From assembly GCA_030704615.1 (NCBI GenBank), contig CM060733.1:71052001-71116000 (forward strand): 64,000 bases of DNA. Direction: 5' to 3'. Both the position numbers and the translations under genes were made by a program. Below the pieces are notes generated by a model, which saw only the letters and a program-made list of their open reading frames with translations, searched no databases and was not told the DNA's origin. The stretch comes from Takakia lepidozioides. Taxonomy: Eukaryota > Plantae > Bryophyta. Positions 27,031-58,661 of the stretch are shown here, piece after piece (positions within the stretch are counted from its first letter, which is position 1; the number at the start of each line of letters is the position of its first letter).

Positions 27031-27776
27031 TGTCGTGCGCATACATATCGCTACACAACTACATCGTTGTCCAAACCACACAACAAATATGTACACCACA
27101 TCAACCAACAGGAAATAGAGATTGTGAAATCATACCGGTATCTCTGGGTCTGCTTATCCACTCCCTGGGCAAAATTCCAGTTTGCATCAACTGCCCTGGA
27201 CAGATTGACGAAGGGCAAGGCGGCCTCCATCCGCCTTCAGGCCAAATGCAAACAAATACATGATCTACGCCAACCCCTAACCAAAAAGTGGCTATTTGAC
27301 AGCGTTGTCACCGCTGCCGCCACTTATGGTTGAGTTCTGGGCACCTGGTGTCCCAGTCTCTTAGTGGGAAAAAATTCTGGAAACGGTCTGCCACAATGAT
27401 GCACAAAACCAAACCAACATTTCACTCATAAAATAAGAGTCAAGCCTAAGGCACCCCAAGCCATGGGGACTCCACCTTTACTACGACAAACTCATGCACA
27501 CATGCTGCTGCAAGCTCGCCGCCGTGAGGCTCAACTCGAGAGAGTTGAGCCTCACACGACGAGCGTACGGATAACTACGTGCAGGTGTCAAGTTAACCTT
27601 GGCACCTCCTTTTGTCACTTGGCCAGGTCCAAGTGCAAACTTATTAACTAGATATTATTGAGCTAGTTTCACACTAACAGTTAATTTAACTTGTCGTGCG
27701 CATACATATCGCTACACAACTACATCGTTGTCTAAACCACACAACAAATATGTACACCACACAACGGTCTGCCACA
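27031..27776 (-). repeat. Terminal repeat block of copy 1: B1 (27692-27776), A (27396-27691), B2 (27031-27100 + 27382-27395)
   Basis: The two 85-bp B copies are nearly identical (TGTGGCA...GCACGACA on the minus strand). B2 is interrupted by a LINE fragment. A is homologous to 58410-58661. Confidence 0.85.
27101..27381 (+). mobile_element. Internal LINE (RTE/RTEX-like) RT-distal fragment inserted in repeat B2
   Basis: EIEIVKSYRYLWV...KWLFDSVVTAAATYG resembles the post-RT F-x-YLG...LF-x-x-x-V-x-x-x-x-x-YG region. Removing it restores B2. Confidence 0.65.
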
Positions 27777-28037
27777 ATCGACCCCTTAGCTGGTGTTTAG
27801 GTCCCTCTAACTCCAGGTGGCTATAAGATGTGATAGTAGCCATAACCTCACTCGATCATCTACCACCGTCCCTATTGTACTCAAACTCGATAGATCAAGA
27901 GGTCGGGTGTTGGAGTAGCCCCATCGTTAATCGCCGTCTTGCAATTTGTGAACTTGAGCCAAAAATCTCGTGTATTGGTCTCATAGTAGCTTGGCTTTGC
28001 GTTTCTTGTTAGCCTTCCATGGTTGTATCCACAGCCA

Positions 28038-28190
28038 TTATCCAATGCAACGTGGACATAACCAATCCCCATCAGGAACCATCTCAAGAGGTGGCGTCAA
28101 GCATCCCATGTGCCAACCTCTTGAGCATTGATCACACACCAGCATGGTGGCTGCCCCTCTGGCAAACCCACACAACATGCACCGCAAACC
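28038..28190 (-). other. PHD finger at integrase C-terminus (copy 1)
   Basis: CMLCGFARGAATMLVCDQCSRGWHMGCLTPPLEMVPDGDWLCPRC = Cys4-His-Cys3. Confidence 0.9.
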
Positions 28191-31100
28191 TGCACATACC
28201 ACTGCCAAGTTTGGGTCAATCCTTCCATCAACATTCGGAAGGTAATATGGCGCGCATTTACGCACATGGTCCTTCCAAGTCATGCCAGCCCGACCCTCCA
28301 AGATCAGGACTTCTAAGGGCAACACTTCTCGAGCCCTCAAGATAATACGTCCTACAGTCATATCCAAGGTCGTCGGAGCAGTCTGCTGCAGATAAACATA
28401 GTCACCAGGTGAAATCTCCGAACCCCAGGACGATAGCCCCTACTACGTATGGTAGCATATCTCAATGTATCACGATGTTATGCAATGGCAAGGTTCTCGA
28501 AAGCCATGGGCATGATTTTTTTGATCAACTCCGCACGCTGATTACAGGCACATGCCCACATGTCCGGATCGTCAAGGTTGAGGACTGGAGCAACGTCTCT
28601 ACGAATGGCTGCAGGCAAATCCGGCTCTTGGCCAAAAAGAAGGAAATATGGTGAGAAGGAGGCAAGTGATGTTTGTTTGTTGAACCTGTAGCCCATGACT
28701 AACCAAGGTAGCTGAAGCTCACAATCTCCAAGGTGTCTCTTCTGCAAGCCATACTTGCGCAAACCCCTCTTAACCGTCTGCACAACTTTTTCTACCAAGC
28801 CATCGGCCTCAGGATGGTCCAGAGAAGTGGTACGGTGGTCTATCAAGGCTTTGTCACACAATGCCTGAAACTCCCCCAAGAACTCTCTCTCTTGGTCCGT
28901 GAGTACCTCAGTTGGAGCACCGAATCGGCTAAGCACACGATCCAAGAATGCATACGCAGCCCCATCACTAGCCTTGTCAGACAATAGAACCAACTCAATC
29001 CATTTGGAGAAGTGCTCCACCATCACCAACATGTACTTGTTGTGGCGCATGGTCAGAGACAACGACCCTGCAAAGTCAAGACTTCACCTATAGCCCAATC
29101 CCATGATCGGAAGAGGGTGCAATTGTGGTGTAGGGGCATTGAATGAAGCATGCACCATGTCACACACCATGTACCTAGCCACAAATTGTTGCACCTCTGT
29201 GTGCATACCACGCCACCAGTACTGCCCCCGCAGTAAACTGTGAGTGCGTCGCACCCGAAAATGCCCCAACTCCTCATGGGCATGCCGCACTAACTGTGCC
29301 CGCTGTGTTGGGTGAGGAAAAATTCTCACTTGACCATCCTCCCACACTCGGAGCAGGTGCGTCCCTTCCCATTTGAACCTCTTGGCTCGTTGTAGGATCT
29401 GATCTCTCTCTTTGGCAGTCACAGTGGCTACTGTGTCTCAAATGCGGAGATAGTCCAACACAGCTGAATCCTCATGTATATCTCTGGCGCCACCGTGCTC
29501 ATCGTTGGCAGCCTCAGGGTCCTCAGACACTCGGTCTACAGTCATCCCTGTTGTAGGTCCAACCTGGCCTTCCACTGCCAAGATACACAGAAATGCAGAT
29601 GCGTGTCATCCCCTCGTCCGTCTCACCATGCCACCGAGCTCCAGTGTCATCCTGCTGGCTTGTGCATGGATTGCGACTCAACCCATCTGCATCCTAATTG
29701 ACTAAACTAGGTCGATGTACCACCTGAAAGTCATATTCTTGGAGTATGAGTGCCTACCGTGCAAGCTTCCCCGTAAGTTTGTCTGACTCCATCAACCACT
29801 TCAATGGCTGGTGATCCGTGACAAGGATGAAGAGGTTGTCGTATAGGTAGCACCTGAAGTGTGTCATGGCCCACACTACAACTAAGCACTCTCCCTCGTA
29901 GGAGCTGTGCTTTGCCTCTGCAGCGTTGTTCAAGCGGCTAGCATAAGCCACTACGAACTCTCTTCTCATCATCCACATGTGTGAGCACTGCTCCAAGCCC
30001 TAGCATGCTCTAATCTGTATGCAGCTGAAAAGGACGCCTCCTGATAGGTCGTCTCAAGATGGGTGCTGAGATCAACCTCGCCTTGAGCTCCTGAAAAGCT
30101 CGTTCCTGCTCATCTTCCCATTGCCACTTCTGGTCCACCTTGGTCAGCTTGGTTAGAGCCTTTGCAATAGCACTAGATCCCTTGACAAACCGTCGATATT
30201 AGTTTGCCAACCCCATAAAAGCCCGAACTCGGCTCACATCTGTGGAGTGTGGAATCTGTGCAATGGCCTCTACCTTAGTCTGATGTACCCCCAATTTTCC
30301 ATGATATATCATGTGACCCAGATATTCAATCTGGTTGTGGAAAAACTTGCACTTCTCCGGATATAACTTCAATCCGTGTGCTCTCAAGCGCTCAAATACC
30401 ACTTGAAGGTGTCTCTCATGCTCCTCCACCGTAGCACTGAAGATGATGATGTCATCTATGCAGCACCGAGCAAACTCCACCCCTGCCAAAATCATGTCCA
30501 TCACCCTCTAAGACTCTGCAGGAGTGTTCTTAAGCCCGAATGGTAAGAGTCGCCACCGGTATAGACAATCCTTGCCGTGCTCATTGATCCCCCAGAATGT
30601 CGTCTTCTGCTTGTCCGCCTCCTTGATCAGCAACTAGTGATATCCGGATCGCAAATCCAAAGTGCTAAAGACCTTAGCATGCCCAATGGTATCAAAGATC
30701 TCTTTCGGTGTTGGCATGACATACCTATCGGAGTTGGCCTGACGATTTACAGGTCAGTAATCCCCGCACATACATCTCTACGTCCAATTGTCATAGACAT
30801 CCTTCTTGGCTGGCATCATTGTGGCCGAAGCATACTCTCCACCAGATAGCTCCACTAAATCAACCTCCTAGAGGTCCTCAGTCCTCATCTGGATCAAGGA
30901 CCTCTCCATGTCACTGTATCTATAGGGTCTCCGAAAGGTTGGCATGTCAGTGGCCAGTTCTCAATACGAATTTCCTGACCTGCTTCCAAGTCCTTCAAAC
31001 TGAAGGCAAAGCAGTTTCTGTAAGCCCTCAAGAACCGCCGTATACGTCGTCTCTCTCCTCCGGTGACAATGGGTCCATCGTCAGGCTCCTAGTTGTCCTC

Positions 31101-31469
31101 CGTAACTGAAACCTTAAGTCTAGCAGACTCAGAGGTAGGAGACGCGTCTCGTGGTTGCTATGCTGCAACCTCTTGAGCAGTGACCACTACCTGCTCTATC
31201 AGTGACAAGGCCTCATCCTGCCCCATCATTCATTCCTTGAGGACTTCCTCAACCCGAGAAAAATCCCCAACATCATCCATCACCGCCGCCTTGGCTGCCA
31301 ACTCCTGTTGAACCTCGAGCACCTCCCACGTGTGCCATGGATGCCTGCATCTTGTGGTCCTCACCTAGTCGCCCCTACTCGCTGCTTGTACCGTCTCGAT
31401 AGGTAGAAAGACCATCAAGGGAAGTGTACTCCGCACTCTGCGCTGCTCAGCCATAGCCAAGCTGATAAT

Positions 31470-32431
31470 CCAGGTTAAGCAATTGAGATCCATTGCTTGC
31501 CCCAACACCTGACAACGTGATGCCTCAGAAAAAAGATGGCACCGTCATGGTACCAGTGATAAAACCCATCGCACGCTCACGCTCGTCGGCATTGGGCTCC
31601 ACTAACTGTTGTAACTGAGCATCCCACAGGAGGCCGGGTCCACTATCCCGGAAAGCATGAGATCCAAGAAAGCTAAACAGTGTAGGTAGTGTTGTTCGTG
31701 GTTGACCCATCATGTTGACCACTACCAAAGGCGAACAGTCATCGTGTCGCACTCATTGAGACTGCCTCCATGTGTCCAAGATGTTATCCACTGTCGGGTG
31801 TGCTGCCGTTGCACCCCATCAAATGCATGCTTTGAGCAGTGCGGGTGGGCATCAAGTTGGTCCACCATAGCCGTGGACGATGAGCCCGTGATCCCACTCC
31901 AGCTGCATCCAACAACACTGCTGATTCAAGCCAAGACCGGACTTGATGCACCCTGGCCATCACCTTGGCCCGAGAATCACCCATCAATGGCACATTCTCC
32001 AAGATATATGCCGGAGAGTTTGTCTGCTGAAACTGTAAATAGCGCAGGACCCTCAGCATCTCCCAAAACAGGCGTGACCTCGAGTCTTGTAATCCATTGT
32101 CATGCCCGGCTGATGAATGCCCTTGGCAGGGCCAACCTGCCACTACCAAATGAATAGGGCCAACCCGCTCCAAATCATGCGCCCCCAGCAAAGAGATGTC
32201 TGCTGACAAGGCTTGCTGGTATCCACGAACTGCAGACGCCGGCAACAAATCAGGGTACTGCTGCACCAATTGAGCAACATGGCGCAGTGAGACACATCGT
32301 GCAGTCTCATCCCTCTCCACATACAGGTAACGCCGAACTCGTACACCTACCTGCAGCACCGCAGCCAATCCAGTGCTGATCCCGCCAAACAAGTCCACAA
32401 GACATATGCCTTCATCCAGGCACTGCCACAC
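31470..32431 (-). pseudogene. Retrotransposon-encoded DNMT3-like C5 cytosine methyltransferase domain (copy 1)
   Basis: Motif I VDLFGGISTG, II YVERD, IV AGWPCQGHS, VI YILENV, VIII AHRPRLWWTNL, IX ERERAMGF..GT, X RCQVLGQAMD. Frameshifts occur in the TRD region. Confidence 0.9.
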
Positions 32432-34444
32432 AATAGGTGCACAGTGTCCAATGGCGATAACTGAGGTGGTCCTGGTGCAATCACCACACTCTCCTCCTCT
32501 CCTGACGGTACAAAGGCCTCTACCCAGGCTTGTTGCACCCGTCTATCAGCAGCCTACTACAAATCCTTGCTCGTGCCCCACAAAGGAGTGTGAGCAACCA
32601 TGGCAGGCAATTCCACCGTACCATGCATATCATACTGCTTTGCTGGAGGTGACATATCACCTGCATGAGCATTGCCTTCTAGCAAATCTCCAGGCCAACT
32701 CACTGCACCTGTGAAGGCTGCTAGTGTTGGCATCTTGCCCCGCTGGGCAGCTGCAACACCCCCAATGAATATCACGGGGAGTTGCACACGCTGGCCATCC
32801 CCTGACTGTCATCCAGGCCTATATGAGGCTGATTCCTCCCAAAAATCCAGGGTGAAGCCCATGGGGTACAATACTGTCCCACCAACCAAGACATCGTAAG
32901 AGACCGCGTTTATCACAATGCCTTGGCTCGCATCATTGAGCCATCTGTAGGGTGATCCAGCTGTAGTCTAATGACCAACTCACGCCGTGTCGTGCCCCAA
33001 GCCTGCTCTGATCCTCCCAGAGATGTCTGTATCTAGAAAAGACAAGACTCCATATCCGCTTCCATGAGGCCCAAACCTGCAATAGCAGCTCTGCCTAGCA
33101 TCAGTGGCTGGAGCTCTCGAGTCCAACAAGACCCGCACTGGCCGGTACCTCCTGCCTGTCGGTCCACTCAAAGAGAAAATACCCTCCTGCTTGTCTAACA
33201 AGACAACTCCAGGTATCACCAGCAGACGCGCTCAGTGGCTGGACTAGCTGGCAGCTCCATCAGTCTGGCAGCTGCAACTTGTCATGGCGCAGCCGTGGCA
33301 GTCTGGACCCTCAAATCTGAGGATCCCTCCGCCACTACACCTTCCACTAACTCCGCAGAAGATGAAGTGACCTCCCTTACACTCTCACAGAGTGTAGCTG
33401 CTAGTCTAAACACTGCAGCTGGTCGTACCCCCGGCGTTGCAATCATGGTCGCCGAGAACAATGGAGCCTGACACACAGATGTGGCCCCGCCCCTAGCAGC
33501 ACACTAGCTGCACTAACCTTGGCAGCATCTTGGTTGGTTTAAATCAGCAGTTGAAGGTGTTGGTAGGAAGTTAGTTGGAAGTGTTTGGAGTGCTGGAGTT
33601 AACTGGAAGTCAGCCGGAAGTTTTGGCTGAATGTGAAAGTTAGCAAGGGAGACCTCCTGTGGTAGTTAATTACACTTGTTGGTATGTGCAGGATTTCATG
33701 GTCGGAGCTCAAACCATTCTGGATGTGAAAAGCGACACCACTTGTATTCACCTCCGACCGGACCTAGAATTTCTGGACAAGAGTGTTCATGAGATGGGAG
33801 AAGGGCGAGCTCATTGACCCCAAAGGGAATATCCCCATGAAAGAGCAGCCAGCGCTCAAGAAATCTAGCGTTGCTCTTTAAACAAAGCAGCCCGGCTTTT
33901 TACCATCACGGGTACCCAAGTGGCTGCAGCAAATCGTACATTGCAGCCCCCTTGTTTAATGTTTAACCTAGCAGAGGGTAGGCAAAGTACACTAAGGCCC
34001 AAAAATCAGATGTGTGTCCTACACAAACCATCATAGGCTCGGTTGTTGCAGCAAAACATGGGCCTTCCATTTGCTTGGAAGAAATTGCCCACCATAAATA
34101 GCACCATACTGTTCTTCAAAGATAAAACAAAGAGGTAGGATCAAGAAAAACCATAGAGTAGTTTAGTTTTTCAACATTTTAAGATGAATCCATGGCTAGC
34201 AACCACCTCCATAGTTCTGCAACCCATTTGGCATCTTGCAACACCTAGCATTCAGCATATTAAGTGGAAGCCCTCACCTGTGCCCGTCCCAAAAACAACC
34301 ACAAAGCGTTGTGAGTTAGTGAGGATGCACGAGGTGAATGACAGACTTCCACACTTGCTATCGAGGTCAAATACACATGAAACTAAGTACAGAGAACACC
34401 ATCAATCGCAGGGAATCAACACAAATAGAAAATAGAACATTTTT

Positions 34445-34860
34445 AACTATTTGGGGGATGGTAGCCATTGCTCCACAAACAAAGACATATCAGCCACTTT
34501 TCAGTGGCACCATCCATCAGCCCCTAAGGAAAAAACCAGAATCAGCATTGATTAATAACAAGGGTATTATTAGGTCTACCCTTCACAAAGCCAGAAAGTG
34601 AGAACATAAGCAGGATTCAGATAACCAAATGGTACTTACAGAATGATCCCTTAAGAATCCAAGGTTGCAACAAAGCTAAGTGGAAGACTTTGTTCTGAAA
34701 ATTTCAAAGGTATGGGTGGGATGGTGGGATATCTTAGTAAAAAAAAGACAAATCAGCCACTTTTCAATGGCACCATCCATCAATACCTTAAGAAAAAAAC
34801 CCGAACCAGCTTCAAATATTATCAAGGGTATACACAAGTAAGTCCTTGATAGAAACCATA
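34445..34860. repeat. Imperfect ~150-bp direct duplication in AT-rich spacer between copies 1 and 2
   Basis: ATCAGCCACTTTTCA.TGGCACCATCCATCA...AAAAAACC occurs at ~34488-34540 and ~34752-34805. GGTATGGGTGGGATGGTGGGAT is also duplicated (34709, 34921). Confidence 0.6.
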
Positions 34861-35499
34861 GAGAGTAAATACCAGCAGATACTAGCAGATACAATCAAAT
34901 ACCAGCAGGTACCTTTCCAAGGTATGGGTGGGATGGTGGGATCTCATCCACTTCCTGCTCTCATATTTTTGAAAGGGTATACATAGGCATCAAACAGTTT
35001 AGTAAAGTAACTTTCTACATCACTGTGTTGCAGGTTATCATAACCCCTCGTCTGATCTTAAAAGAGTATTTACCTTAAGGCCTAAGTACTTTGATAAAGC
35101 CAGCATGGTATCATACTGGTATTATGCCTCTGAAAGGTCTAAGCATCAGGTGTTGATGCTTATGTATGCAGATTGGTATAAGTACTATGGGCCATGGTAC
35201 AACTATATCATAGCAGATGCATCTGAAGATCAAACACACAGGTGTATAGTACAATTTTACACCTTATCTTATGTGTTGATGAGATTATCAAAAACACATG
35301 AGCTGCACATCAAAAAAAGAAGGAGCCAAGATACCTCAGAATTACACAATCCATATGCCAGTATCAGTTTAAACTGGTATTAAATGAATCCCTGGAAAAT
35401 TGTAGGCATCAGTCATTGATGCATATTTTTCCAAGTTTGCTAAGTACCTTAAACTCAGGCAGCAGTTAATGGTATTGAAAAGACTATACTGAAAGTTTT

Positions 35500-38400
35500 A
35501 TAAGAGGGCTGAACGCTTGATAAACGTAACCCAAGGGGTTATAGAAGCTCAAGCAGTCCAGTTCTGGTATGGGATCCTGGACAAGGAGCTGAGGAGAAGG
35601 GTGCGGGATGCAACTCTCCTACAAGTGGACCAACCCACCCTAGCAAATGTGTTTTTGCTGGCAGAGCGGATAGAGCTCAATATGGTGGAGGAGCGAGTGG
35701 TTATGGTGGGGTTTGGCAAGGAGACACAACGAAGTGGGGCTCCTAGCCAACAACAACCACTACCCCAACGTGTTCAAGGCAACAAGGGGGCTCAGGTGAA
35801 GCCCAGGGAATGACAGAGAGGATCTCAGATGCAGAGGTCTCTTCCTTCATTCTCAGGCCAACAACAGTCGAGTGTGACTTGTTGGGATGGTGGAGGACCC
35901 CATGTCAAGAAGAATTGCCCGGAGAGAGGCAAAGGGTCGGCACAGGCACAGCCTACACAACTACAGTGTGGGCATTGTGGAAAGTATGGGCATGAGGAGG
36001 CCCATTGTTATGACTTGCATCCTGAGCTACGGCCAGGCCAGTTCCAAGGGAACAATGGTGGCCGATGACGAGGCAATGTAGTCCAGAGGGTGAGGAGGCA
36101 GAGGTCGTGGTGGAGTCGTAACCAAACCAAGGAGCACAGGATCACGGTCAAGGTCATGACCAAGGCATGGTAGATAGGCTTGCCCAGCTAGAGCAACGTC
36201 TTGCTACCATGGCCACTACTCATGTTGCGCCAGCTCCAAGGCCTGAGGTTCAAGCCCCACCTCCACAACCTCTTATGCCTAGGGAAGACCAGATTGGTAT
36301 GGGCTTCATGTGTAGAGCCGCACTTGCAGGACCATGCATGTGGACTCTGCAGCTGCTATCACTCGAGCAGCAACGCGTGCTCCTGAGCCAAGATGAGCGG
36401 AATCCGGATGTGGATTTTGATCCACAAAGAGGGGAAGCAAGTCGGCAGACAAAGCTTCCACAGTCTTTCACATTGGCTAGATAGTGCCAACTATGCCATT
36501 GATAGCACCTGCTCGCCCAAGTGTGTCAGAGGTAGAGCCACGAGTGCCATTGGGAGAGTTGGTATGGCTCGGGAATGCCATGGGTGGTACTGCAAGCAAG
36601 GTGCAGCCAGTACAATTGTCGGGGCGGCTATGGCATTTGCCAGGCTCCATTGTTTTCTGCCACGACAATTGCAATGTTGGGGATGCGGCCAGCTGCAGTG
36701 TTTAGACTAGCAGCTGCACTCTATGAGAGTGGTGATGCATCGACACTATTTGCGGGGATAGCGGATCAGTGGCAGTGCATGGATGCCCTGGATTCAAGGG
36801 TGAAGACAGCCACAGCGCCATGGCAAGTGGCAGCTGCAAGGTTGCAAGAGTTGCCAGCTAGACCAGCCATTGAGCGTAGTATGGTGACTCCTGGGGTAGT
36901 CCTGGTGGACAATCAGGATGGTGTGTTTCATTGGGTGCCCCAGCCAGGGAGGGAGGAGGTATAGGCCACTACGGGTCTTGTTGGACTCGGAGCATAGCCA
37001 TTGATGTTAGGGAAGCAACAATTGCAGGCTTGGGCCTTACAGAGGCAGATGGAGCCTTGCCCTTTCCAAATTCAAACATCTTTGGGCGGTTAAGAGAAGG
37101 CACGAGGGATTACCCGCCATGAGCTCTTCATTCGATTGCAACCAGATCATCCTACAGATGGCTCTGTCATGAGAGCTAAAGCCATTATTACGGACGCGAT
37201 GTCTTATGATGTGCTTGTTGGTGGGGCTGTGTTATACCCGATGGGCTTTGCTTTGGACTTTTGGGAGGAAACGGCATCCTATAGGCCAGAATGGCAGTTA
37301 GGGGATGGTCGACGCGCACTGCTCCCTGTGGTTTATTGGAATGTAGCGGTGGATCATAGGAACATGATGCCCACATTGGCTGCATTCCAGGGTGTGGCTT
37401 GGGGTGGTGAGCTCTTGGAGGGCAATAGCAATGCAGATGATAGGCCACCCCCTAATGAGGACAAACAATTGGCCTACAAGGCTGATTTGCTCCTCATGTG
37501 CCTGTTCATATTCCACTGTGGGTACAGTTGGGAATTTGCATCGAGTCGCAGCGAGTGTGTGCCCCAAGCATGGCAGGAGGCCTATCCATTGGTGAGTGAG
37601 GGGAGTTCAGTGACATCACATGGACCTCCTTAGTTTGCTCCTTTGGATACAATGCCTATTACATGATCAACCACCGGACTCAGGGATTTGTTTGCTAGAC
37701 CTATTTGGAGGCATGAGCACGTGTACTTTGTAGGAGTGTTGCAAGCTGGGATTAAAGTACAAAAGTACTTGTATGTGGAAAGGATGAGATAGCTCGGCGT
37801 ATTTCTATGCACCACGTTGCCTTGCTCACACACCAGTACCCTGAGTTGCTGCCTCTCTCAACAATTCAAGGGTACCAAAAGGCCTTGCCAGCAGACATTA
37901 CCATGCCGGGGCGGATGATTTGGACCAGCATGGTGCCATTGGACTTGGTGATAGCTGGATGGCCTTGCCAAGGACACTCTCCCGCAGGTCATGGGAATGG
38001 CTGTGCATGATGCACATCGCTTTTTTTGGGAGAGGTTGCGAGTGTTGCGGGACTTGCATACGAGGCAAGTGCAACCTCTAGGCTATATCTTGGAGAATGC
38101 TCCTCTTATGGGGGATTCTCAGGCCAGGGTGCATCAGGTGCGGTCTTGGATTGGATCGGCAGTGCTATTGGATGCAGCACATCGGTGGGATCACGCTCGC
38201 ATCGACCTCGATTGTGGTGGACCAATCTTGCACCACTAGAGCTGGCTCAGAGAGCATATGATTCCATTCAACGGCCACCCAATCTCACGGTTGAGGGCAT
38301 TTTGGACCAGGGAGGCAACCACAGAGGGTGCGACATGATGACCGTCCCCCTCTAGAGTGGTCAATCGAGTGGGGTAGCCACGTACAGCCTTGTCCTACGC

Positions 38401-41400
38401 TCATGAGCTTTCCCTCGTCTCATGCTTTTTGAGACAATGGTCCTGGGTTGATTTGGGACAGTGTGCTACAACAATTGGTGGAGCCCAATGCGGATGAGCG
38501 CGAGCGGGCAATGGGATTTGCCACGGGCACTACAGCTGTGCCAGCTCTGTCAGAGGCATCACGACGCCAGGTGTTGGGTTAGGCAATGGATCTCAAATTG
38601 CTTGACATGGGTTCATTGGCTTGTGCATGGCTGAGCACGGAGATTGCAAGCATTGGGGGCTACTTCTGTACTTCCATTGGATATTGCACCATCTCTGCCA
38701 ACCAGGATGGTGAGGCAGTGAGTGGGGGCGAGCACAGGATCCTGGGGTGCAACACCCCTGGCAATTGGGATGAGATGCAGAAAGAGAGAGTCATTGGATC
38801 TCTCAGCAGCAATATGAGGAGTGGGGAGAGCCATACCTGAATATCAGTGAGAGGCCAAGGTGGCCAATGGTTTTTAAAAGAGTTGAGAATGTTTCTTTGT
38901 CTCAAAAGGATGTTCTTCAAGGTGGCTATGGCGGAGCAAGTGGAGGCTATGCCCAATAAATTGGGTGGACAAGGCCCAAGAGGTTGCTATCTAGCACACC
39001 AAAGGATTCATCCCTACCTCCAAGCCTGGTGTACCAGGTTGTAGTCACTGAGGACAATTGGGAACCAGATGTTGGACCGACAGTCACCGGAGGAGAGAGA
39101 CGGAGGATCCACCAGGATTTCTAAGGGCTTATAGAATTGCTTTGCCTTCGGTTTGAGGGATGTGGGGAGTTTGAAGGGTCAGAGATTCGTATTGATTTGG
39201 GCAAGTGACCCGCCAATCTTTCGAAGGCCCTACCGGTATAGTAACATGGAGAGGTCATTGATCCAGTCAGACAGGATTCAAGCGGGTTCAACACACACTT
39301 AATAGCAGAATCGTCAATGAGTAGAGTGTTACTAGTTCTTACCGTTCGTCTGAAGAAGCTCCTGCAGAGTTCAGAGGGTCATGGATAGGATTCTCGCGGG
39401 CTAGACTTTGCCCGGTGCTACTTGATGACATCATCGTCTTTAGTGCTACGGTTGAGGAGCATGAGAGACACGCTTCATTGGTTGTTTGATGCGCTTGAGA
39501 GCGCACGGGTTGAAATTGCACCCTGGAAGTGTCAAGTTCTCACAACCAGATTGAGTATCTGGCACAAGATATACCCTGGAGGATTGGGTGTTCAAAAGAC
39601 GAAGGTGGAGGCAACTGCACGCATTCCACGCCCCATAGATGTTAGCAGAGTTCGTGCTTTTATGGGGTTGACAAACTACTATCGACGGTTTGTCAAGGGA
39701 TTTAGCAGCATTGCAAAGGCTCTTACCAATTTTACCAAGGTGGGTCAGGAGTGGCAGTGGGAGGAGGACAGAAGGAAGACTTGAGGAACTCAAGGCTCGA
39801 TTGACTTCTGCACCTATTCTGAGGCGGCCTATTTGGGGGCGGCCCTTTCCAGCTACATACGGATTGGAGTATGCTGGAATTGGAGCAGTGCTCACACAGG
39901 TGGATGACGAGGGACAAGAGTTCGTAGTGGCATATGCCACAGCCATCTCGAACATGATGCCGAGGCGAAGTATAGCTCATATGAAGGGGAGTGTCTAGCT
40001 GTGGTATGGGCAGTGGCACATTTCAGATGCTACCTCTATGGCAACCTCTTCGCCCTTGTCACGGATCACCAACCATTGAAGTGGTTGATGGAGTCAGACA
40101 AGCTTACAAGGAAGCTTGCACAGTGGGCACTTATGCTTCAAGAGTACGACTTCCAGGTGGTGCATCAAGCCGGTATAGTCAATCGGGATGCAGATGGGTT
40201 GAGTCGTAATCCATACACGAGCGAGCATGATGATACCGGAGCTCGGTGGCATGGTGAGACGGATGAGGAGATGGTGCCAGGATGACACACATCTGCCTTT
40301 TTGTGCATCCTAGCAATGGGAGCTCAAGCTGGTCCATCCCATAGCATTGGTCAAGTAGATGGTGTGCATGACAATCCGGAGATCAGTGAGGAGCTTGGTG
40401 GTGCTAAGGATGTGCATGAAGATGCAGCAGTGTTGGCCTACCTTCGTACAGGAGAGACAGCAGCCAGTGTGATTGCTAAGGAGAGAGATCGGATCCTACA
40501 ACGAGCCAAGAGGTTCAAGTGGGAAGGGACTCACCTACTCCGGGTATGGGAGGATGGACGAGTGAGGATTGTGCCTCATCCAACACAACGAGCGCGATTG
40601 GTATGCCATGCCTATGAGGAGTTGGGACATTTTGGGGTGCGGCGCACTCATAGTTTGCTGCAAGGGCAGTATTGGTGGCGGGGCATGCACATGGATGTGC
40701 AACAGTTAGTGGCAAGGTGCATGGTGTGTGATAGAGTGCGGGCTTTTTTCAACGCCCCTACTCCACAGTTGCATCCTTTACCCAGTTTGGGCTATCGTTG
40801 GAGTCTTGACTTCACAGGCCCATTGCCACTGACGATTCGCCATAACAAGTATGTGCTGGTGATGGTGGAACACTTCTCCAAATGGATTGAACTGGTGGCA
40901 TTGCCTGACAAGGCAAGTGAGGGGGCTGCGTATGCATTCTTAGATCGAGTGCTTAGCCATTTTGGTGCTCCAGCCGAGGTACTCACGGACCAGGGGAGAG
41001 AATTCTTGGGGGAGTTTCAGGCTTTGTGTGAGCAAGCCTTGATAGATCACCGCAATACTTCTCGGGATCATCCCGAGGCTGATGGCTTGGCGGAGAGAGT
41101 TGTTCAGACAGTCAAGAGAGGTTTGCGCAAGTACGGTTTTGCAGAAGGGACACCTAGGAGATTGGGACCTTCAACTGCCTTGGCTAGCTATGGGCTATAG
41201 GTTCAGCAAACAAGCTTCACTTGCCTCCTTCTCACCTTACTTTCTTCTCTTTGGCCGAGAGCCGGATTTGCCTACATCTATTCGTAGGGAGGCTGCAATA
41301 GTTCTCAACCTTGATGATCCGGATGTGTGGATACAAGCATGTGCCCAGCGGGTAGAATTGTTCAAGAGAGTCATGCCTATGGCTTTTGAGAACCTTGCTA

Positions 41401-42199
41401 TTGCCCAACACCGAGACACATTGAGGTATGCCACTGTACGTGGAGGGGGATATCGGCCAGGTGTTCGGCGTTTCCACCGTGGGGACTATGTGTATCTGCA
41501 ACAGACAGCGCCTACGACTTTGGATGTCACAGCAGGGCGTGCGATTCTAAGGGTCCGGGAGGTGTTGCCTTCAGGAGTGTTGATTCTGGAAGGTCGAGAT
41601 GGCATGGTATGGAAGGACCATGTACGCAACTGTGCACCATGTCACCTTCCACATGTGGATGAGAGGATAGATCCCAACCTTGCAGTGGTACCTGCAGGGT
41701 TGCGTTGCATGCTATGTGGGCATGCTGGTGATGCCGCAACCATGTTGGTGTGTGACAAATGCTCAAGGGGGTGGCACATGGGATGCTTGACACCGCCACT
41801 TGAGGAGGTTCCGAGTGGAGAATGGTTGTGTCCACGATGCCTTGGACATAGGTAGTGGGCTTGACAATGGTGGAGTTGCCAAGTGATCAAAGGTCTAGCT
41901 GGTAGGAGCTCAACGCCATGGATAATCAATTGAAGATCATGGATTGCAAGCAGCGATTAACGATGGGGCTCTCGTTGCACCCGGCCTCTTGATCCATATA
42001 CTTTAAAAAAAATTGGGACATGTGCGATTGAAGACCAAACGATGATCTTATTGAGATGGATACTTGTCAGCTATCCGGTGTTAGAGGGACCTATTCACCA
42101 GCTAGGGGGGCGATTGTGGCATAGCTTTCTAGGATTGTGTGCTTAGAATGTATGGTAGACAGCGATGTATATTGTGGCACGATGCTTAGGTGCACGACA
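35500..42199 (+). mobile_element. Ty3/gypsy-type retrotransposon copy 2 (5' truncated within gag): gag-PR-DNMT-RT(partly deleted)-RH-INT-PHD, PPT and 85-bp terminal repeat B
   Basis: gag QFWYGILDKELRRRVRD and knuckles; PR VLLDS; DNMT AGWPCQGHS/YILENA/HRPRLWWTNL (~37660-38620); integrase ORF 40301-41200 (HHCC, SLDF, TDQGREF, DGLAER); PHD 41705-41855; PPT AGCTAGGGGGGCGAT, then B at 42115-42199 (TGTGG...CGACA). Confidence 0.92.
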
Positions 42200-42204
42200 G
42201 AGTA

Positions 42205-42560
42205 CCTGAACGTCCGGAAACTTGAATAACAAGTGCAGATCTGCTGGGGGCCGGACCACAACCCCTTAAGAGATTCCAAAGCTCTGAAGGCCACCAATGT
42301 TGATCACACTAGTTATTAGAAATATGTCAAGCCATAGCACACCACAAATGGAGGAATTGGCAAGAAGATAGGCCCATCAAAGTAGCTGAATGTCTGGAAA
42401 CTTGAACAATAAGTGCAGCTATATTGGGGGCCAGACCACAACCCTTTGAAAATCTTTATGGCTCTGAAGGCTAGCATATCTTCATCACCCTACTTGCTAT
42501 AAATCCACCAAGCCATAGCACACCCAAATTGGAGAAATTGGCATGAAGATAGGGCACAGC
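42205..42560. repeat. Two diverged tandem copies of a ~180-bp unit
   Basis: CTGAA.GTC.GGAAACTTGAA...GGGGGCC.GACCACAACCC...CAAGCCATAGCACACC...GAAGATAGG repeated at ~42206 and ~42386. Confidence 0.7.
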
Positions 42561-42569
42561 TGAAATGAA

Positions 42570-43895: not shown

Positions 43896-43934
43896 GTTGG
43901 AACGCCACGGAACGCCATGCATCCATGCCTCCAT

Positions 43935-44460
43935 GTAATATAGCACGATTGTCACCTTCTAGACCCCCAATTTCAACACTCAAAGCCATTCTATCAATAT
44001 ATTCTTGGAAAGTATGGACGCCATGTAATTCAAAAAGGATTTCTGGAGAAAAATGTATTTGAACCATCTCCAATATATCGTTATTTGAGGTTTGATAATT
44101 CTGTAAGAAATAAGGCATGATTTGTTGTCGCAACTCTTTGGATGCATACGCATACTCCAATAAAAATGCAATAGAGTCGAACAAACAATCACCGACGACA
44201 TATGGATAATTTTTTACTCGTTCGAGATTTTTAGAATCCAAGACAAAATCTATATCGGTAGGTTCTGCTCTTGTTTGATCTTTGATGGCCCTTCTAGTTC
44301 GGTGCTGCCACATTTCGCTTGCATTGTCTTTTCTTTGTCTCAAGCTCTCTCTGAGCTTTGTGTGGACATTATAAAGTTTCTCATGCAGCAATCTGCATGA
44401 GTTGTTACATCTTGGTGAGTACTGAGAATCCACGAGTGTTGTAAGATGCTCCACCTTCAG
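43935..44460 (-). pseudogene. OTU-like cysteine protease fragment (possibly Helitron- or TE-derived)
   Basis: VVGDCLFDSIAFLL...KELRQQIMPY...FQEYIDRM...GGLEGD matches the OTU Cys-loop and EY..M..WG pattern. AT-rich and intronless, unlike its flanks. Confidence 0.55.
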
Positions 44461-44496
44461 TCTTGTCCATTCAAGCCAGGCTTGCAAACGCACACA

Positions 44497-44690
44497 AACG
44501 TCTCTACCAATCCACTAGCAAAGTCCTGGTCAATGGCCATCTCTTCACTCCTTTTTCTCTCCACAGGTCAATTAGACAAGGATGCCCGTTGTCTCCCTTA
44601 TTTTTCTTGTTTTTGGCTGACACCCTAGGTTACCTGCTGGACTCTGAAGCTTCGGTGCAAGGCCTCAGAATAAAAAAACCCTAGGACTGG
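44497..44690 (+). mobile_element. L1-clade LINE RT fragment
   Basis: SKVLVNGHLFTPFSLHRSIRQGCPLSPLFFLFLADTL. Confidence 0.85.
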
Positions 44691-45400: not shown

Positions 45401-45409
45401 GAAGGGGTT

Positions 45410-52780: not shown

Positions 52781-55700
52781 AAATCCTTGCTCGTGCCCCA
52801 CAATGGAGTCTGAGCAACCATAGTAGGCAACTCCGCCATACCATACATGTCATCCTGCTCTCCCGGAGGTGGCACATCCTCTGAATGAGCGTTGCCCTCA
52901 AGCAATTCTCTAGGCCAACTCACTGCCGCTGTGAATGCTGCTAGTGTCGGCATCTTGCCTCGCTGGGCAACCGCAACTCCTCCTATGAACGTCACAGGGA
53001 GCTGCACACGTCGGCCCTCCCCTGACTGCCATGCAGGCCTATAGGAAGCTGACTCCTCCCAAAAATCCAGGGTGAAGCCCATGGGGTACAACACTGCCCG
53101 ACCAACCAGAACATTATATGAGACCGCGTCTATCACAATGGCCTTGGCTCGCATCACTGAGCCATCTGTAGGGTGATCCGGCCGTAGTCTGATAGCCAAC
53201 TCACGCCGTGTCATGCCCCGAGCCTGCTCCGATCCTCCCAGAGACGTCTGTATCTGGAAGGACAAGGCTCCATATCCGCCTCCGTGAGGCCCAAGCCTGC
53301 AATAGCAGCTCTGCCCAGCATCAATGGCTGAGCTCCCGAGTCCAACAAGACCCGCAGTGGCCGGTACCTCTTGTTTGCCGGTCCACTCAAACAGAAAATG
53401 CCATCCTGGTTGTCTAACATGACAACTCCAGGTGTCACCATGGCGCGCTCAATGGCTGGCCTAGCTGGCAGCTCCATCAACCTGGCAGCTGCAGCTTGCC
53501 ATGGCGCCGCCGTGGCAGTCTTGACCCTCAAATCCGAGGATCCCTCCGGCACTACACCTCCTACTATCTCCGCAGAATATGAAGTAACCTCCCCACTCTC
53601 ACGGAGTGTAGCTGCCAGCCTGAACACCTCAGCTGGTCTTACCCCCGGCGTCGCAATCATGGTAGCCGAGAACAATAGAGCCTGACACACAGATGTGGCC
53701 GCTCCTAGCAGCACACTAGCTGCCGTAGCCTTGACAACACTAGGTAGTGGTGCTACCCGTGTAGCTCTCCCCAATGGCATAGTAACCTCCGCCTCGGTAA
53801 CAGTCGGGCGAGAACTAGGTGCCATGGATGGCGTCGACACTATCTCCGCCAATGTGAATGACTGAGGAAGCCTAGCCTGACGGCTTGCCTCTCCACGCTG
53901 TGGATCCAACTCCACCTCTGCACCTCGTGGCTCAGGAACTCGTGCTGCTCTTCGAGTCACGGCTGCAGCAGACTCCACATGCACTAGTGGTAGTGCTGCT
54001 CCACACATGAATCTCATGCCTCCCATATCTCCTCCCTCAGGAGCAAGAGGTGGACCATCCGGCCTTAGAGCCGGTACCACCTGAGCTGTAGCCATGGCAG
54101 CGAGCCTCTGCTCTAGCTGCTGAAGCCGGTTGGCCATGCCTTGGTCAACACCCTGACCTCCGCGTCCTTGGCCATGTTGAGCTTGCCCTTGGCCTGCACC
54201 TCGTGGCTGGTCACCTCGTCCTCTCTGGGCTGCTCCACCTCGCCCCCGGCCACCATTGTTCCCTTGGAACTAGCCTGGGCGCAACTCAGGATGCAAACCA
54301 TAACACTGGGCCTCTCCATGCCCGTGCTTGCCACAATGCCCACACTGCAACTGTGCAGGCTGTGCATGTGCGGCCCTTTGCCTCCCTCTGGGCAATCCTT
54401 TTTGACATGGGGTCCTCCACATGTCCAGCACACCACATCCGCCCGTTGTTGGCTAGCAAATGAAGGGAGAGACCCCTGCATCTGAGGTCCTCTCTGCCCT
54501 TCCCTGAGCTTCACCTAAGCCCCCTTGTTGCCTTGAGCACGTTGAGGTAGTGGTTGGCTAGGAGCACCACTACCCCGTGGTGTCTCCTTAGCAAATCCCA
54601 CCATGACCACTCGTTCCTCCACCATGTTGAGCTCTATCCGCTCTGCCAGCAAAAACACATTTGCTAAGGTGGGTTGGGCCGCTTGTAGAAGAGTTGCATC
54701 CCTCACCCTTCTCCTCAGCTCCTTGTCCAATATCCCATACCAGAATTGGACTGTCTGAGCTTCCGTAACCCCTTGGGTTACATTTATCAAGCGCCTCATG
54801 CGAGTGAAAGCCTCCCTCAAGCTCTCGGTCGGCTTTCGTTGGAACTCTTACAAGCTCCGCAACTTCTCTGTCCTCACCCCTTGGTAGTTCCCTCTCAACT
54901 CTTCGAAGAATTCCACAACAGGGTTGAAGGCAGACACGGGTACTAGTGCTGGTGCGGTAGTGGCTTGGGTGGACGTCGTAGCTACTGTACCACCATTCCC
55001 ACTAGTCCCACTGCTGCTTGCTGAAGCTGCCGGTGCAGCGGCAGTTGTAGCCACTGCCCCGTGGCTCTATGCCCTAGTGATGGAGACATAGTCAGGTGAC
55101 CAGTACATCCTCCACTCCTCGATCTCAACTCATGCCCCGCCTAAACTCATGGTAATCATCCATAGGCGGCCCTCAAGGTGCTGAAACAGCCCTTTTCATG
55201 CCATGAAAGGCGTAAATAGTTGTGGATTGCGCATTTGCTGCAAATCACACCAACTATCAAACTCTTGGATAAAATCATCCAACTCGATGGTGCCCACCGC
55301 CCCAGAGTACCTTCGTTGCCCCTTGGTAGCTCCATACATCTCCTCCATTGTGTCCCACAACAATGACAAGGAAACAACTTGCACCGCCGGTATAAGTCCC
55401 CCTGATTCACAATCCGAATCAGAACCTTCCGTAGACGACACAGGAGGTGAAGGTGGCCTAAACCGCACACCTTGTCTCGTGTACCCACTAGTATCACTAA
55501 TGCTCGAACCGGCACTGTCCCCAGCAACTAGTGGCACCTCCGTGTTGACACTCAACCGGTCATGAACATGTCCCTAACCCCCTCTCCACAAGGTAACCGG
55601 GTAGAGAACCTGTTGCGGCTTATGGTTTGGAATACTAAGTTCATAACATAGCCTACACCTGTACTTGCATGACCATGGAAATATCATGAAGATACTCCTC

Positions 55701-58661
55701 AAACCGCCCTCCACGAGCTTCAAAATTCGGCCTTCAAGACCACATGCCAGTCCTTAGGCAGTCCACCAGTGCCTACATGAGTCAGCACAGGCCGTCCACA
55801 GGTCAACACGGGCCACCACAGACCAGCACAGGCCCACACAGGCCCACACAGCTCACTGGTCACAGCCGTCACAGCCCCACACAGGCGACAGCCTGTCACA
55901 GCCCTACACAGGTCACAGGGTCACAGCCCCACAGGCCGCAGCCTGTCACAGCCCCAAAGGCCACATGTCACAGCCTGTCACAACCCATCACAACCCAAAG
56001 GCCACAAGCACAGCCTGTCACAGCCCTACAAAGGTCACAGGTCACAGCCCCAAAGGCCACAGCCTATCACAGTCCCTCACAGCCCCATAGGCCACAAGGC
56101 ACAGCCCGTCACAACCCCACAGGCCACAGGGCACAGCCTGTCCCAGCCCGTCACAGCCCGTCACAGCCCACACAGGTCACAGGGTCACAGCCCCAAAGGC
56201 ACAGCCCCCACAGCCCGTCACAGCCCCACAGGCCACAAGGCACAGCCTGTCGCAGCCCCTCACAGTCCCACAGGCCACAGGGCACAGCCTGTCACAGCCC
56301 GCCACAGCCTGTCATAGCCCTCACAACCCATCACAGCGTGTCACAGCCCGTCACGCCCCACAGGCCACAGGGCACAGCCCACCACAGCCTGTCACAACCC
56401 ATCACAGCCCCACAGGCCATAGGGCACAGCCTGTCACAGCCGCCACAGCCCATCACAGCCCATCACAGCTCGCCACAAGCCTATCACAAGCCTGTCACAG
56501 CCCCTCACAACCCGTCACAGCCCCACAGGCCACTGGGCACAGCCTGTCACAGCCCGTCACAGCCCCACAGGCCACAGGGCACAGCCTGTCAAGCCCCTCA
56601 CAGCCCGTCACAGCCCCACAGGCCACTGGGCACCCTCACAGCCCGTCACAGCTCGCCATAGCCTGTCACAGCCCGTCACAGCCCCTAGGCCACAGGGCAC
56701 AACCTGTCACAGCCCCTCCACGTACCCTCACAGCCCACAGGCCACTGGGCACAGCCTAACACAGCCCGCCACAGCCTATCATAGTCCGTCACAGCCCCAC
56801 AGGCCACATGGCACAGCCTGTCACAGGCCCCCCTCACAGCCCATCACAACCGTGTCACAACCCGTCACAACCCCACAGGCCACAGGGCACAGCCTGTCAC
56901 AGCCCCACAGGCCACTCATGACAGTTTAGCCATTTCTCCAAGGGGTTTAGCCACGCCAAACTAGGGTTTGTGTCTCTTGGACTCTAGGCTTCTTTGCACC
57001 GAGCTATGGCGGCTGTGAAGAAATCAGCAAGGTATTCTTGCTCTTTCGGCTCCCACACACCACCAATAGTAGCCCTAAGCCATGAGGAAGATGGTTGCCA
57101 CAAACCAAGCCTTCTTTCTCACTTAGACTCCCCAAACACGCTACTAAACTCAATGGCAAACAGCCAAGCCTTGGTGGTTTCCAGCCCTTGTGAGCACTCA
57201 TTCAAGCGTTTCCCTGGCCATAGCATCTGTCTTAGAGCCTACTCCAGCCCCCACACTGCCACTTCAAGAGCCATGCTCTATCTAGGCTTGAGGTTGAAAC
57301 CCCAACTCAGAATACGCTCTACAAGTGTCAGACTGTCACATAAGAGCAGATCAGCCCCTTACCTCTTCTAGTTCTCTAAAGCTTGAAAACAAAAGCCCAA
57401 TGGACTGAAGGCATGCTCCACACATGCCCCACTCTCACCACCAGAAAATCAGCCTTTTTGCTTTCTTTCTTGCACCCACCAACCTGAAAATACACGCTTC
57501 AGCGGGCTGGAAGCATGCTCCACACATGCCCTACAGGGAAACCAGCCCCTTCCTTCCTTCTTGCTTGCCCTCCAAGCTTGAAGATGGAAGCTCAATGAGC
57601 TGAATACATGCTCCACACATGCAACCTCTTCACACAAGAGGTATCAGCCCCCTATCTTGGCTCATTAGCTCCTTGATGCTCTCTAAGACACTAAGCACTC
57701 CACAGCCCTTGCCAAGCTCCTGAAACCCTAAGGCTTACATTTCCAGCCACAAGACACTCCTCTTGTGGTGCAAGAGCTCTTCTTCCAAGCTCTGAAACCC
57801 TAGGTGCACATTCTATGGCCTTGCCGCACCTCTTAGCTCCTGTTCCAACCCTGCTCTTGCCATGACAAGAGCCCTCTCAATGCTGAAGCTCGAGATTGAA
57901 ACCCAATCTCAACATACTCCACAAAGTGCACTGATTTGCCCCAAGCCAAATCAGCCCTTTCGCTTGGTCTTGCAATCCTTCACACAATGAAAGCTCGCAT
58001 TCCCAAGTCCAGTTCTCAGCTTTGTCACCAAAGCCACTATAACCTGCTTTTGACTGGTCCTCTTCCCAATCGTGCTTGCTTATGCATGTACACAATTTGA
58101 AACCATCAAGGTGCTCTGGAATTACCTGCAACATCGTGCTTTCATCTCTGAAGCTGAAGATCGAATGCCAAGGTCTACCACCTCGTAACCCACATCGCCT
58201 CCGCTTCTAACAACCAAGAGCTTCACGGTGCTCCTTGCATAACAACCTGGTTTCTCTCATTCTCAAGCAAAAACCACAAGTGCTACAACTAACTCGTATT
58301 TGGCACTCACAGATACGAACTCATCTTTCTCGAGTGATAAAGAAGAAGAATACAAGCACAAGCTCATGCGAGCTCACAAGGCTGAAGCATAAACTCATGC
58401 ATATATAACCACACCACTCAAATACAAGTCAAGCCAAGTGCACCCCACGCCATGGGGAATCCACACTACGGCGCCATAGCTAGGCGCGGTGAGGCTCAAC
58501 TCGAGAAAGATGAGCCTCCCGCGCTTGCCGTGAAGATAACCACTCCAAGGCCTAAATCTGCCTTGACCCTTGGATTGACACTTGGGCCAATCCCAAATGT
58601 CAATATGTAAAAGCTAGCTATTTCCTAGCTAGTTTCACACTAGTGGTAAAATAACTTGACA
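52781..58661 (-). mobile_element. Ty3/gypsy-type retrotransposon copy 3: 5' terminus (A repeat), long leader with tandem repeat, gag and protease; 3' truncated just before the DNMT domain
   Basis: Begins TGTCAAGTT at 58661, abutting host eIF2-gamma sequence. gag ~55555-54140 (ELDDFIQEFDSWCD, QFWYGILDKELRRRVRD, CWTCGGPHVKKDC, CGHCGKHGH..C); protease LRVLLDSGAQP. 52781-53730 is collinear with copy 1 32561-33520. Confidence 0.9.
55780..56925. repeat. ~1.1-kb low-complexity tandem array (CACAGCC / GTCACAGCC units) in copy-3 5' leader
   Basis: Dense degenerate CACAG(C/G)C units with a higher-order CACAGCCTGTCACAGCCCGTCACAGCCCCACAGGCCACAGGG pattern. Confidence 0.92.

Follow-up and report, generated by a model that had tools for sequence, protein, structure and literature searches.

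We examined a 64,000-nt stretch of the genome of the moss Takakia lepidozioides (assembly GCA_030704615.1, contig CM060733.1, positions 71,052,001 to 71,116,000 of the forward strand), which is called the window here and is numbered from its first letter. The window holds three decayed copies of one Ty3/gypsy-type retrotransposon family, all of them broken, and six-frame reading and motif search showed that two of the copies carry a DNMT3-like C5 DNA methyltransferase (DNMT) domain. The original prediction, made from the letters of the window, had described the two methyltransferase-bearing copies, and both were confirmed at their places; the third copy, with gag and protease at 52781-58661, is additional to them. 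The claim that all copies are degenerate was also borne out, as all three are truncated and copies 1 and 2 also have frameshifts and stops. In the list below, A and B denote parts of the terminal repeats, ORF1 is the first open reading frame and PPT stands for polypurine tract.

27031..33527, minus: copy 1, protease, DNMT, stop, reverse transcriptase, RNase H, integrase and PHD finger; 5'-truncated, long-form 3' end B1-A2-B2; several frameshifts and stops
32800..33230, minus: copy 1 aspartic protease region, VLLDS motif at 33132-33118; frameshifted, limits approximate
31488..32395, minus: copy 1 DNMT3-like C5 methyltransferase, motifs I-X linear; open up to motif VIII, then frameshifted
31152..31160, minus: copy 1 in-frame TAG (31160-31158), then CAA CCA, between ORF1 and Pol; likely readthrough signal
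29610..30960, minus: copy 1 reverse transcriptase and RNase H
28410..29311, minus: copy 1 integrase, H2C2 finger and DDE core; limits approximate
28047..28181, minus: copy 1 C-terminal PHD finger (PF00628, E=2.9e-11)
27778..27813, minus: copy 1 purine-rich PPT-like motif, conserved, adjoining repeat B1
27692..27777, minus: copy 1 repeat B1, TTGTGG to CACGACA
27397..27691, minus: copy 1 repeat A2, 67% identical to A1 of copy 3 over 266 nt (E=6e-25)
27031..27396, minus: copy 1 repeat B2, 76 nt at 97% identity to B1; interrupted by a foreign insertion (about 27101-27381)
35499..42199, plus: copy 2, from mid-gag (CCHC knuckle at 35967) through protease, DNMT, stop, reverse transcriptase, RNase H, integrase and PHD finger; short-form 3' end at B1
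37698..38591, plus: copy 2 DNMT3-like domain; several frameshifts, stop inside motif X
38992..38994, plus: copy 2 TAG in the linker between DNMT and reverse transcriptase, at the place equivalent to the copy 1 TAG
41706..41840, plus: copy 2 PHD finger; closest solved structures are the PHD fingers of CHD4, KMT2C/D and KDM5
42078..42199, plus: copy 2 PPT-like motif, then repeat B1 (42114-42199), which ends in CACGACA; no A2-B2 after it
52781..58661, minus: copy 3, made up of the 5' end, a long leader, gag and protease (DSG at 53351-53337); breaks off just before the DNMT
58335..58661, minus: copy 3 repeat A1, 327 nt, TG...CA; the promoter-side part of the long terminal repeat (LTR)
58320..58334, minus: copy 3 putative primer-binding site (PBS), directly after A1; 15-nt exact complement of 58514-58500 within A1, likely self-priming

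The domain order agrees with a Ty3/gypsy assignment: reverse transcriptase (RT), RNase H (RH) and integrase (INT) follow one another, the RT is of Ty3 type and the integrase has the H2C2 finger and DDE core. PHD (PF00628), rve, H2C2 and RNase H profiles match copies 1 and 2; RVT_1 was scanned in copy 1 only, and matches there. No Pfam match to gag or protease was obtained in the window segments or in the Marchantia protein P0004, and these regions were assigned by their CCHC and DSG motifs and by homology; PF13650 is present in the homolog P0029. For the relative P0177 the best sequence match in the PDB was Ty3 Gag-Pol (E=4e-101), and a search of viral contigs with the same protein gave no match. 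The predicted order of gag, protease (PR), DNMT, RT, RH, INT and PHD holds for the position of the DNMT between protease and RT and of the PHD finger after the integrase. It does not hold as a description of full-length copies, as copy 1 begins near 33527 without gag and copy 2 starts in mid-gag.

One unbroken alignment of copies 1 and 2 covers the protease region and the DNMT (2079 nt, 68%), and another extends over RT as far as the 3' end (2892 nt, 77%). The two are hence separate insertions belonging to one family. We also considered copies 1 and 3 as two halves of a single element. This was rejected: they overlap over 968 nt at 87%, and their outer flanks show no duplication.

The methyltransferase domain

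In copy 1 six motifs were located in linear order between 32395 and 31488 on the minus strand, as had been predicted: motif I DLFGG (32395-32381), IV GWPCQG (32137-32120), VI YILEN (32008-31994), VIII HRPRLWWTNL (31882-31853), IX ERERAMGF (31584-31561) and X QVLGQAMD (31511-31488). The equivalents of the same six motifs in copy 2 lie at 37698, 37957, 38084, 38200, 38496 and 38568 on the plus strand. The catalytic Cys, the EN of motif VI and HRPRLWWTNL had been described as kept in both copies, and they are, except that motif VI of copy 2 reads ENA and that its motif X contains a stop. The domain is intronless in the window copies, as first described. When the suggested profile check was made with PF00145, the 252-residue open stretch of copy 1 was significant (E=4.2e-11, passing the curated cut-off), and the copy 2 fragment gave a weak match that fails this cut-off (E=0.01).

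Sequence comparison with the PDB placed DNMT3A, DNMT3B and DNMT3C first (E=1.8e-11), followed by HaeIII and HhaI (1e-4) and DRM2 (0.045). The predicted model of the open copy 1 fragment was mediocre (pLDDT 71; best Foldseek match DNMT3, E about 4e-6), and for this reason the whole domain was folded from P0002, a natural relative 73% identical to copy 1. This model reached pLDDT 85 and superimposed on DNMT3B and DNMT3A with Z of 27 (27.2 to 6kda) and a root-mean-square deviation of 2.6-2.7 Å over about 271 residues; the value for HhaI was Z 22.5. The motifs run from I to X without permutation and include the catalytic Cys, EN and RxR. Judged by sequence and by the predicted fold of P0002, the methyltransferase has DNMT3 as its nearest class, ahead of DRM, DNMT1/2 and bacterial enzymes, in agreement with the original prediction of an unpermuted, DNMT3-like rather than DRM-type domain. 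Among 18 proteins that were retrieved through their integrase and not through their DNMT, the catalytic Cys was present in 15, EN in 15 and HRxR in all 18.

The methyltransferase as a part of the element

A protein search with the DNMT yielded 49 proteins among 2586 candidates; Marchantia accounts for 21 gene models among them, and Calypogeia and Sphagnum for 2 each. A pattern search of metagenome contigs gave 263 matches, 146 of which were confirmed as related loci, and the best 80 of the 146, many of them near-duplicates, were kept. The DNMT is colinear with the element in most of these 80 loci. A protease lies at most 700 nt upstream of it in 66 of the 69 loci with room for one, and RT lies downstream in 55 of 62. 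The linker of locus L010 has the same wording as the Sphagnum fallax model P0039. The Marchantia proteins P0004 and P0006 each have one open Gag-PR-DNMT frame, and the gene models of Marchantia and Calypogeia stop after the DNMT.

The ratio of nonsynonymous to synonymous substitution (dN/dS) between copies 1 and 2 was about 0.11 for the DNMT (247 codons), 0.20 for RT, 0.17 for RH and 0.13 for INT; these deep values are rough, because synonymous sites are near saturation. They suggest that the DNMT evolved under purifying selection, and the neutral evolution that had been named as a ground for abandoning the prediction was not found. Nor was a nested insertion, the other such ground, given the fixed PR-DNMT-RT spacing and the open Gag-PR-DNMT frame in Marchantia.

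The DNMT might still be a captured passenger or a nested insertion without a role. No copy in the window is intact, and the 80 loci, having been selected by DNMT motifs IV and VI, cannot reveal members that lack the domain. However, this explanation has to contend with the constant position and spacing across loci, with the single frame in Marchantia and with the low dN/dS between the window copies. Contigs of all four sequencing runs examined cover all 30 bins of copy 1, the DNMT bins included (39,212 records from run X1 alone), and no contig joint skipping the DNMT alone was found among the 15 joints listed, 102 further joints existing; a search of sequencing runs listed no RNA data set containing the sequence. 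In a profile search that returned 487 clusters at E<=1e-30, the best 150 were mostly retroelement polyproteins or fragments of them. We regard a passenger as very hard to credit and the DNMT as very probably a selected part of the element.

An in-frame stop between DNMT and reverse transcriptase

Copies 1 and 2 both have an in-frame TAG between motif X and RT, with the context TAG CAA CCA in copy 1, and 372 contig records of run X1 contain no alternative letter at a level of at least 3% at 31151-31163. We surveyed this linker in 57 sequences carrying both anchors, DNMT motif X and RT. In 46 of them the first stop met on going upstream from RT is followed by CAA-C, nine more have a stop at this place in translation, and two were ambiguous; thus a stop comes between DNMT and RT in 55 of the 57 sequences, as it does in the window. 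Both sides of the stop are in one frame in 43 of the 57. The DNMT had been placed in one polyprotein with RT. Its position before RT stands, but the single open frame does not, because the DNMT ends ORF1 ahead of a conserved, family-wide in-frame TAG. ORF1 is therefore Gag-PR-DNMT, and the second unit is RT-RH-INT-PHD. The stop context resembles the leaky UAG-CARYYA signal, and Pol is probably produced by readthrough of TAG-CAA-CCN. The placement of the stop predicts that the enzyme would be packaged in bulk.

Split terminal repeats, priming and target duplications

The ends of the element are split repeats, arranged A..B-A-B in a long form or A..B in a short form, which the original prediction had overlooked. 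In relatives the 5' end is formed by A1, and the 3' end either is B1-A2-B2 (with complete examples in L041/L060, L052 and L067) or lies at B1. The window holds matching parts: copy 1 ends in B1-A2-B2, copy 2 ends in B1 only, and copy 3 begins with A1. An ordinary pair of LTRs was rejected on the basis of this repeat order, and two complete outer LTRs with a PPT directly before the 3' LTR, as in other gypsy elements, were not found. The purine-rich motif before B is the best-kept non-coding stretch between the window and the loci. Relatives also have TG...CA ends and a target duplication within the gypsy range of 4-6 bp. Ten loci have both ends, two of which represent one site, leaving nine distinct insertions. 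The 4-bp duplication is exact in six of the nine, keeps three of four bases in two and two of four in one, in long and short forms alike; it cannot be read in the window because no complete copy is present there. The element appears to work like a gypsy element with permuted LTRs.

Where B meets A, L010 and L067 have the palindrome CAYGACA-GC-TGTCRTG, and the junctions of L041, L052 and L060 are close to palindromic. A loose contig end from run X5 shows GC and then the start of A at the end of B within the window's own family. The A/B junctions are blunt joins in L041/L060 and L067, and PBS-like sequence is kept in L016/L018. Two-LTR circle junctions show comparable blunt or PBS-retaining joins. 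In L016 (5531-5819) and L018 (13147-13435) a partial A repeat is linked to B via PBS-like sequence away from the coding region and resembles a remnant of a circle junction. Integration at the internal palindrome is likely, in our judgement; the split repeats and 4-bp duplications together point to integration at an internal junction, which is unexpected for a DDE integrase.

In copy 3, the 15 nt directly after A1 pair exactly with a stretch inside A1 (the control maximum was 9 in 246 windows; fold z=-4.98). In the metagenome loci a different sequence does the pairing, at a site that lies 26-28 nt beyond a TATA box; for 16 of 24 A1 repeats the best match is located there. The PBS is thus complementary to what would be the element's own 5' RNA end, the pairing expected of self-priming. 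The transcript would start inside A, from the TATA box 26-28 nt upstream in the relatives, and self-priming of reverse transcription is highly probable. The leader is about 3 kb long in copy 3 versus near 1.2 kb in the metagenome relatives. Within the copy 3 leader, 55781-56905 is a satellite-like array of approximately 10-nt CACAGCC-type units with higher-order periods. The insertion inside B2 of copy 1 (27101-27381) has a plus-strand frame that reads like the end of the RT of a long interspersed nuclear element (LINE), and gave no Pfam match.

Both the expression of Pol and the short form might have plainer causes, which would leave the role of the DNMT unaffected: short A..B copies could arise after insertion by recombination between B1 and B2, and Pol could be made by re-initiation or splicing. 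The direct repeats B1 and B2 are nearly identical and are spaced by about 340 nt, and in our own reading of the sequences some gene models bridge DNMT to RT by predicted introns. In addition, most metagenome loci carry an ATG two codons past the stop, which would permit re-initiation in them; copy 1 and L003 have none. However, CAA-CCN is retained where the ATG is missing, and recombination accounts for the short form but not for the start at A and end at B of the long form with its 4-bp duplications. We consider these plainer causes unlikely, and retain readthrough and integration at the internal junction as the preferred account.

Taxonomic range and history

An integrase search yielded 91 proteins among 4465 candidates. 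Identities to the window integrase were 75-79% for Riccia and Calypogeia, 54% for Klebsormidium and 45-50% for Tetrabaena, Volvox and Chlamydomonas eustigma. None of the organisms named for the 91 matches is a fern, lycophyte or seed plant. The DNMT occurs in two layouts. It precedes RT in Marchantia, Calypogeia, Sphagnum and Closterium, and Riccia is close by its integrase. In the chlorophyte elements (P0230, P0233, P0247, P0221 and unnamed relatives; Tetrabaena, Chlamydomonas eustigma, Volvox) the same DNMT lies between RNase H and integrase. The lineage therefore extends beyond streptophytes. The suggestion of an ancient streptophyte lineage was right in that the lineage is old and present in land plants, but it is not limited to streptophytes.

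An unrooted tree was built from 62 DNMT rows, without host enzymes; nine near-copies from Marchantia were left out, and about one third of the RH-DNMT-INT layout was kept. It placed the 24 rows with the DNMT before RT, together with the window, on one side of a branch with support 99. The named members on this side are all streptophytes (Marchantia, Calypogeia, Closterium), and those on the other side are chlorophytes. This topology fits one move of the DNMT domain inside an old lineage, in either direction. The integrase tree did not resolve the backbone, on which the Klebsormidium nitens INT-PHD protein P0224, the one 54% identical to the window integrase, is located. No named K. nitens DNMT was recognised among the matches; cluster look-ups covering 20 of about 150 representatives and relatives gave Closterium and Marchantia.

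Relation to known elements

The sources compared here were available in part of their text, and the statements below apply to those parts. KnitGypsy-Dnmt3 of K. nitens shares with the window family its Gypsy domains, DIRS-like repeats and an intronless, unpermuted Dnmt3-type domain under purifying selection (PMC5890265). The same set is found here, purifying selection being a rough estimate near saturation. The difference is that the K. nitens DNMT is reported in the Pol ORF, whereas in the window family it ends ORF1 before the stop (PMC5890265). The covered text does not mention a PHD finger, Marchantia or a target site for KnitGypsy-Dnmt3 and does not give the place of the DNMT within Pol (PMC5890265). 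The window element works like KnitGypsy-Dnmt3 and is probably kin to it.

SymbioDIRS-Dnmt3 of Symbiodinium likewise has a Dnmt3-type domain in a cDNA-making retroelement; methylation of cDNA was proposed for it and CG activity was shown in yeast. It differs in having a tyrosine recombinase and a DNMT in Pol, versus a DDE integrase in the window family and 4-bp duplications in its relatives (PMC5890265). EpiLTRs of Cymbomonas and Euglena are also LTR elements that combine a cytosine methyltransferase with a chromatin reader, but their DNMT is sister to DNMT4 and they have a DAM domain and a chromodomain; in the same source the streptophyte Gypsy-DNMT3 is regarded as a separate acquisition (bioRxiv 10.64898/2026.05.21.726589). 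Split-direct-repeat elements of the PAT/Ngaro/VIPER type share the order of the repeats, A1 (5') and B1-A2-B2 (3'), but encode a tyrosine recombinase, whereas the window copies have H2C2 and an rve integrase (PMC6681497). No tyrosine recombinase family was found among the 19 window segments scanned, which sets the copies apart from DIRS, PAT and Ngaro. Tf1/Sushi and the plant Tcn1 chromoviruses, the latter found in mosses and club-mosses, are Ty3/gypsy elements with tRNA-free self-priming, but have a chromodomain and ordinary LTRs (PMC6317226). In the window family a PHD finger, not a chromodomain, follows the integrase. The covered main text of REXdb mentions neither PHD nor methyltransferase (PMC6317226).

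In the literature covered, where subscription papers, Repbase reports and theses were thinly represented, a Gypsy-DNMT3 is named only in PMC5890265 and bioRxiv 10.64898/2026.05.21.726589. Figures and bioRxiv supplements lay outside this survey, which gave no report of a Gypsy-DNMT3 from land plants or chlorophytes and none on the stop, self-priming or target duplication. The window family is more elaborate than first described, yet it is a variant of a published kind, of which KnitGypsy-Dnmt3 is the closest known example. The homologs retrieved here extend the range of such elements to liverworts, mosses and further green algae. An opinion paper of 2019 made the case that enzymes of this sort had disappeared from land plants (PMC6338049), and the methyltransferase count of Marchantia polymorpha was given as five in 2018 (PMC5784723), in the parts of both papers that were covered. 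The family is common in the moss genome and present in the model plant M. polymorpha, where 21 of the 49 DNMT matches are gene models, some with an open Gag-PR-DNMT frame. What a transposon gains from its own methyltransferase thus becomes testable in a genetic model.

A proposed role for the methyltransferase in the particle

We interpret the copies as decayed members of an old green-plant Ty3/gypsy lineage related to KnitGypsy-Dnmt3, in which the DNMT is likely produced in amounts like those of the capsid, is likely packaged in the particle and would methylate new cDNA (probability about 0.55). Under this proposal, transcription would begin inside repeat A and the RNA's own 5' end would prime reverse transcription, as in Tf1. 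Pol, comprising RT-RH-INT-PHD, would arise by readthrough of TAG-CAA-CCN; since Pol needs readthrough, the DNMT would outnumber RT and integrase. The plus strand would initiate at the PPT-like motif before B, giving a linear cDNA B-A..B-A. The integrase would then cut the palindrome at the B/A junction and not the linear ends, leaving CA ends and a two-base overhang. A cut of the linear form or of a one-repeat circle would produce A..B, and a cut of a two-repeat circle A..B-A-B. The long form alone would retain a 3' A for the next strand transfer, making A..B a dead end. Co-made with Gag, the DNMT would be present in the particle during cDNA synthesis. The PHD finger likely binds the unmodified H3 tail and may direct insertion away from active promoters, and pre-methylated cDNA would enter chromatin resembling host heterochromatin. 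For cDNA as the main substrate of the DNMT, its most likely job, we would give about even odds. It is also conceivable, though we think it a long shot, that the element's own methylation of CG and CHG sites in the palindrome selects which junction can be cut, and thereby long versus dead-end short copies, as an epigenetic copy-number switch.

A number of observations weigh against this interpretation or parts of it. The observed/expected ratio of CG was 0.46-0.53 in the three copies and not below the 0.34-0.55 of host regions; CG depletion as a trace of self-methylation was therefore rejected, and the copies bear no such footprint. The KnitGypsy-Dnmt3 enzyme gave no methylation in yeast, a result judged inconclusive in the covered text (PMC5890265). 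The chlorophyte DNMT lies inside Pol, so Gag-level amounts are not required throughout the lineage, and WECQ replaces WPCQ at motif IV in 42 of 104 proteins of the RH-DNMT-INT layout. Some distant members, including Closterium, have DNMT and RT in a single open frame. Three close pairs of metagenome loci gave a DNMT dN/dS of 0.56-0.83 versus 0.26-0.37 for RT, which hints at weaker recent constraint on the DNMT. Pairing of the PBS at 12 or more of 14 positions was seen in only 9 of 24 decayed A1 repeats. The ATG beyond the stop belongs with these points.

Some of the same facts suit a domain kept for a non-catalytic or non-DNA job, such as nucleic-acid binding in the particle, folding of the self-priming RNA or RNA methylation: the lack of methylation by the Klebsormidium enzyme in yeast, WECQ in many distant members, the lack of extra CG loss and the position of the DNMT in the Gag frame. 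However, the best-kept stretches across deep splits are the catalytic Cys, EN, HRxR and the S-adenosylmethionine-binding motifs I and X, and the predicted fold matches DNMT3 across the whole domain. Such a job appears distinctly improbable to us.

A nuclear role is the other alternative. Here the DNMT would act on chromatin, at the insertion site, existing copies or competitors, guided by the PHD finger, and would serve self-silencing or the reshaping of host methylation. In sequence comparison with the PDB the PHD finger is nearest to those of CHD4, KMT2C/D, KDM5 and UHRF1, which would make a writer-plus-reader pair. Several of the CHD4, KMT2C/D and KDM5 fingers bind unmodified H3 tails, and DNMT3 pairs its methyltransferase with an ADD reader domain. 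The chlorophyte DNMT adjoins the integrase. K. nitens copies are methylated in CHH and CHG (PMC5890265, covered text). In the land-plant form, however, the DNMT is upstream of the stop and the PHD finger at the far end of Pol, so that most DNMT molecules would be without the reader. We consider a nuclear role doubtful, and favor methylation of cDNA in the particle.

Neighbouring features

A multi-exon gene for an NF-X1-type zinc finger protein occupies 10780-20450 on the plus strand (PF01422 on 11641-12201) and has LINE-like remnants in its introns. An aminotransferase gene resembling 1-aminocyclopropane-1-carboxylate synthase lies at 22473-26017 on the plus strand; its last exon forms an early branch with Physcomitrium in a 14-row clade (100/99; one gene, in a set where neither a hornwort nor a lycophyte was named). 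This tree fits a moss host and gives no support to a fern, to which the pentatricopeptide-repeat pieces had first pointed. Several 3' remnants at 8746-10350, 15818-17711 and 24109-24761, on both strands, are related to one another (74-99% alike) and are LINE-like by their wording only. Dispersed 43-nt repeats occur near the window start (1801-2490), and a 199-nt tandem duplication (42175-42553) comes right after the end of copy 2. Scrambled fragments of pentatricopeptide repeats on both strands, with a LINE-like RT piece at 44795-45850, fill 42560-52780, and copy 3 is cut off where this cluster starts.

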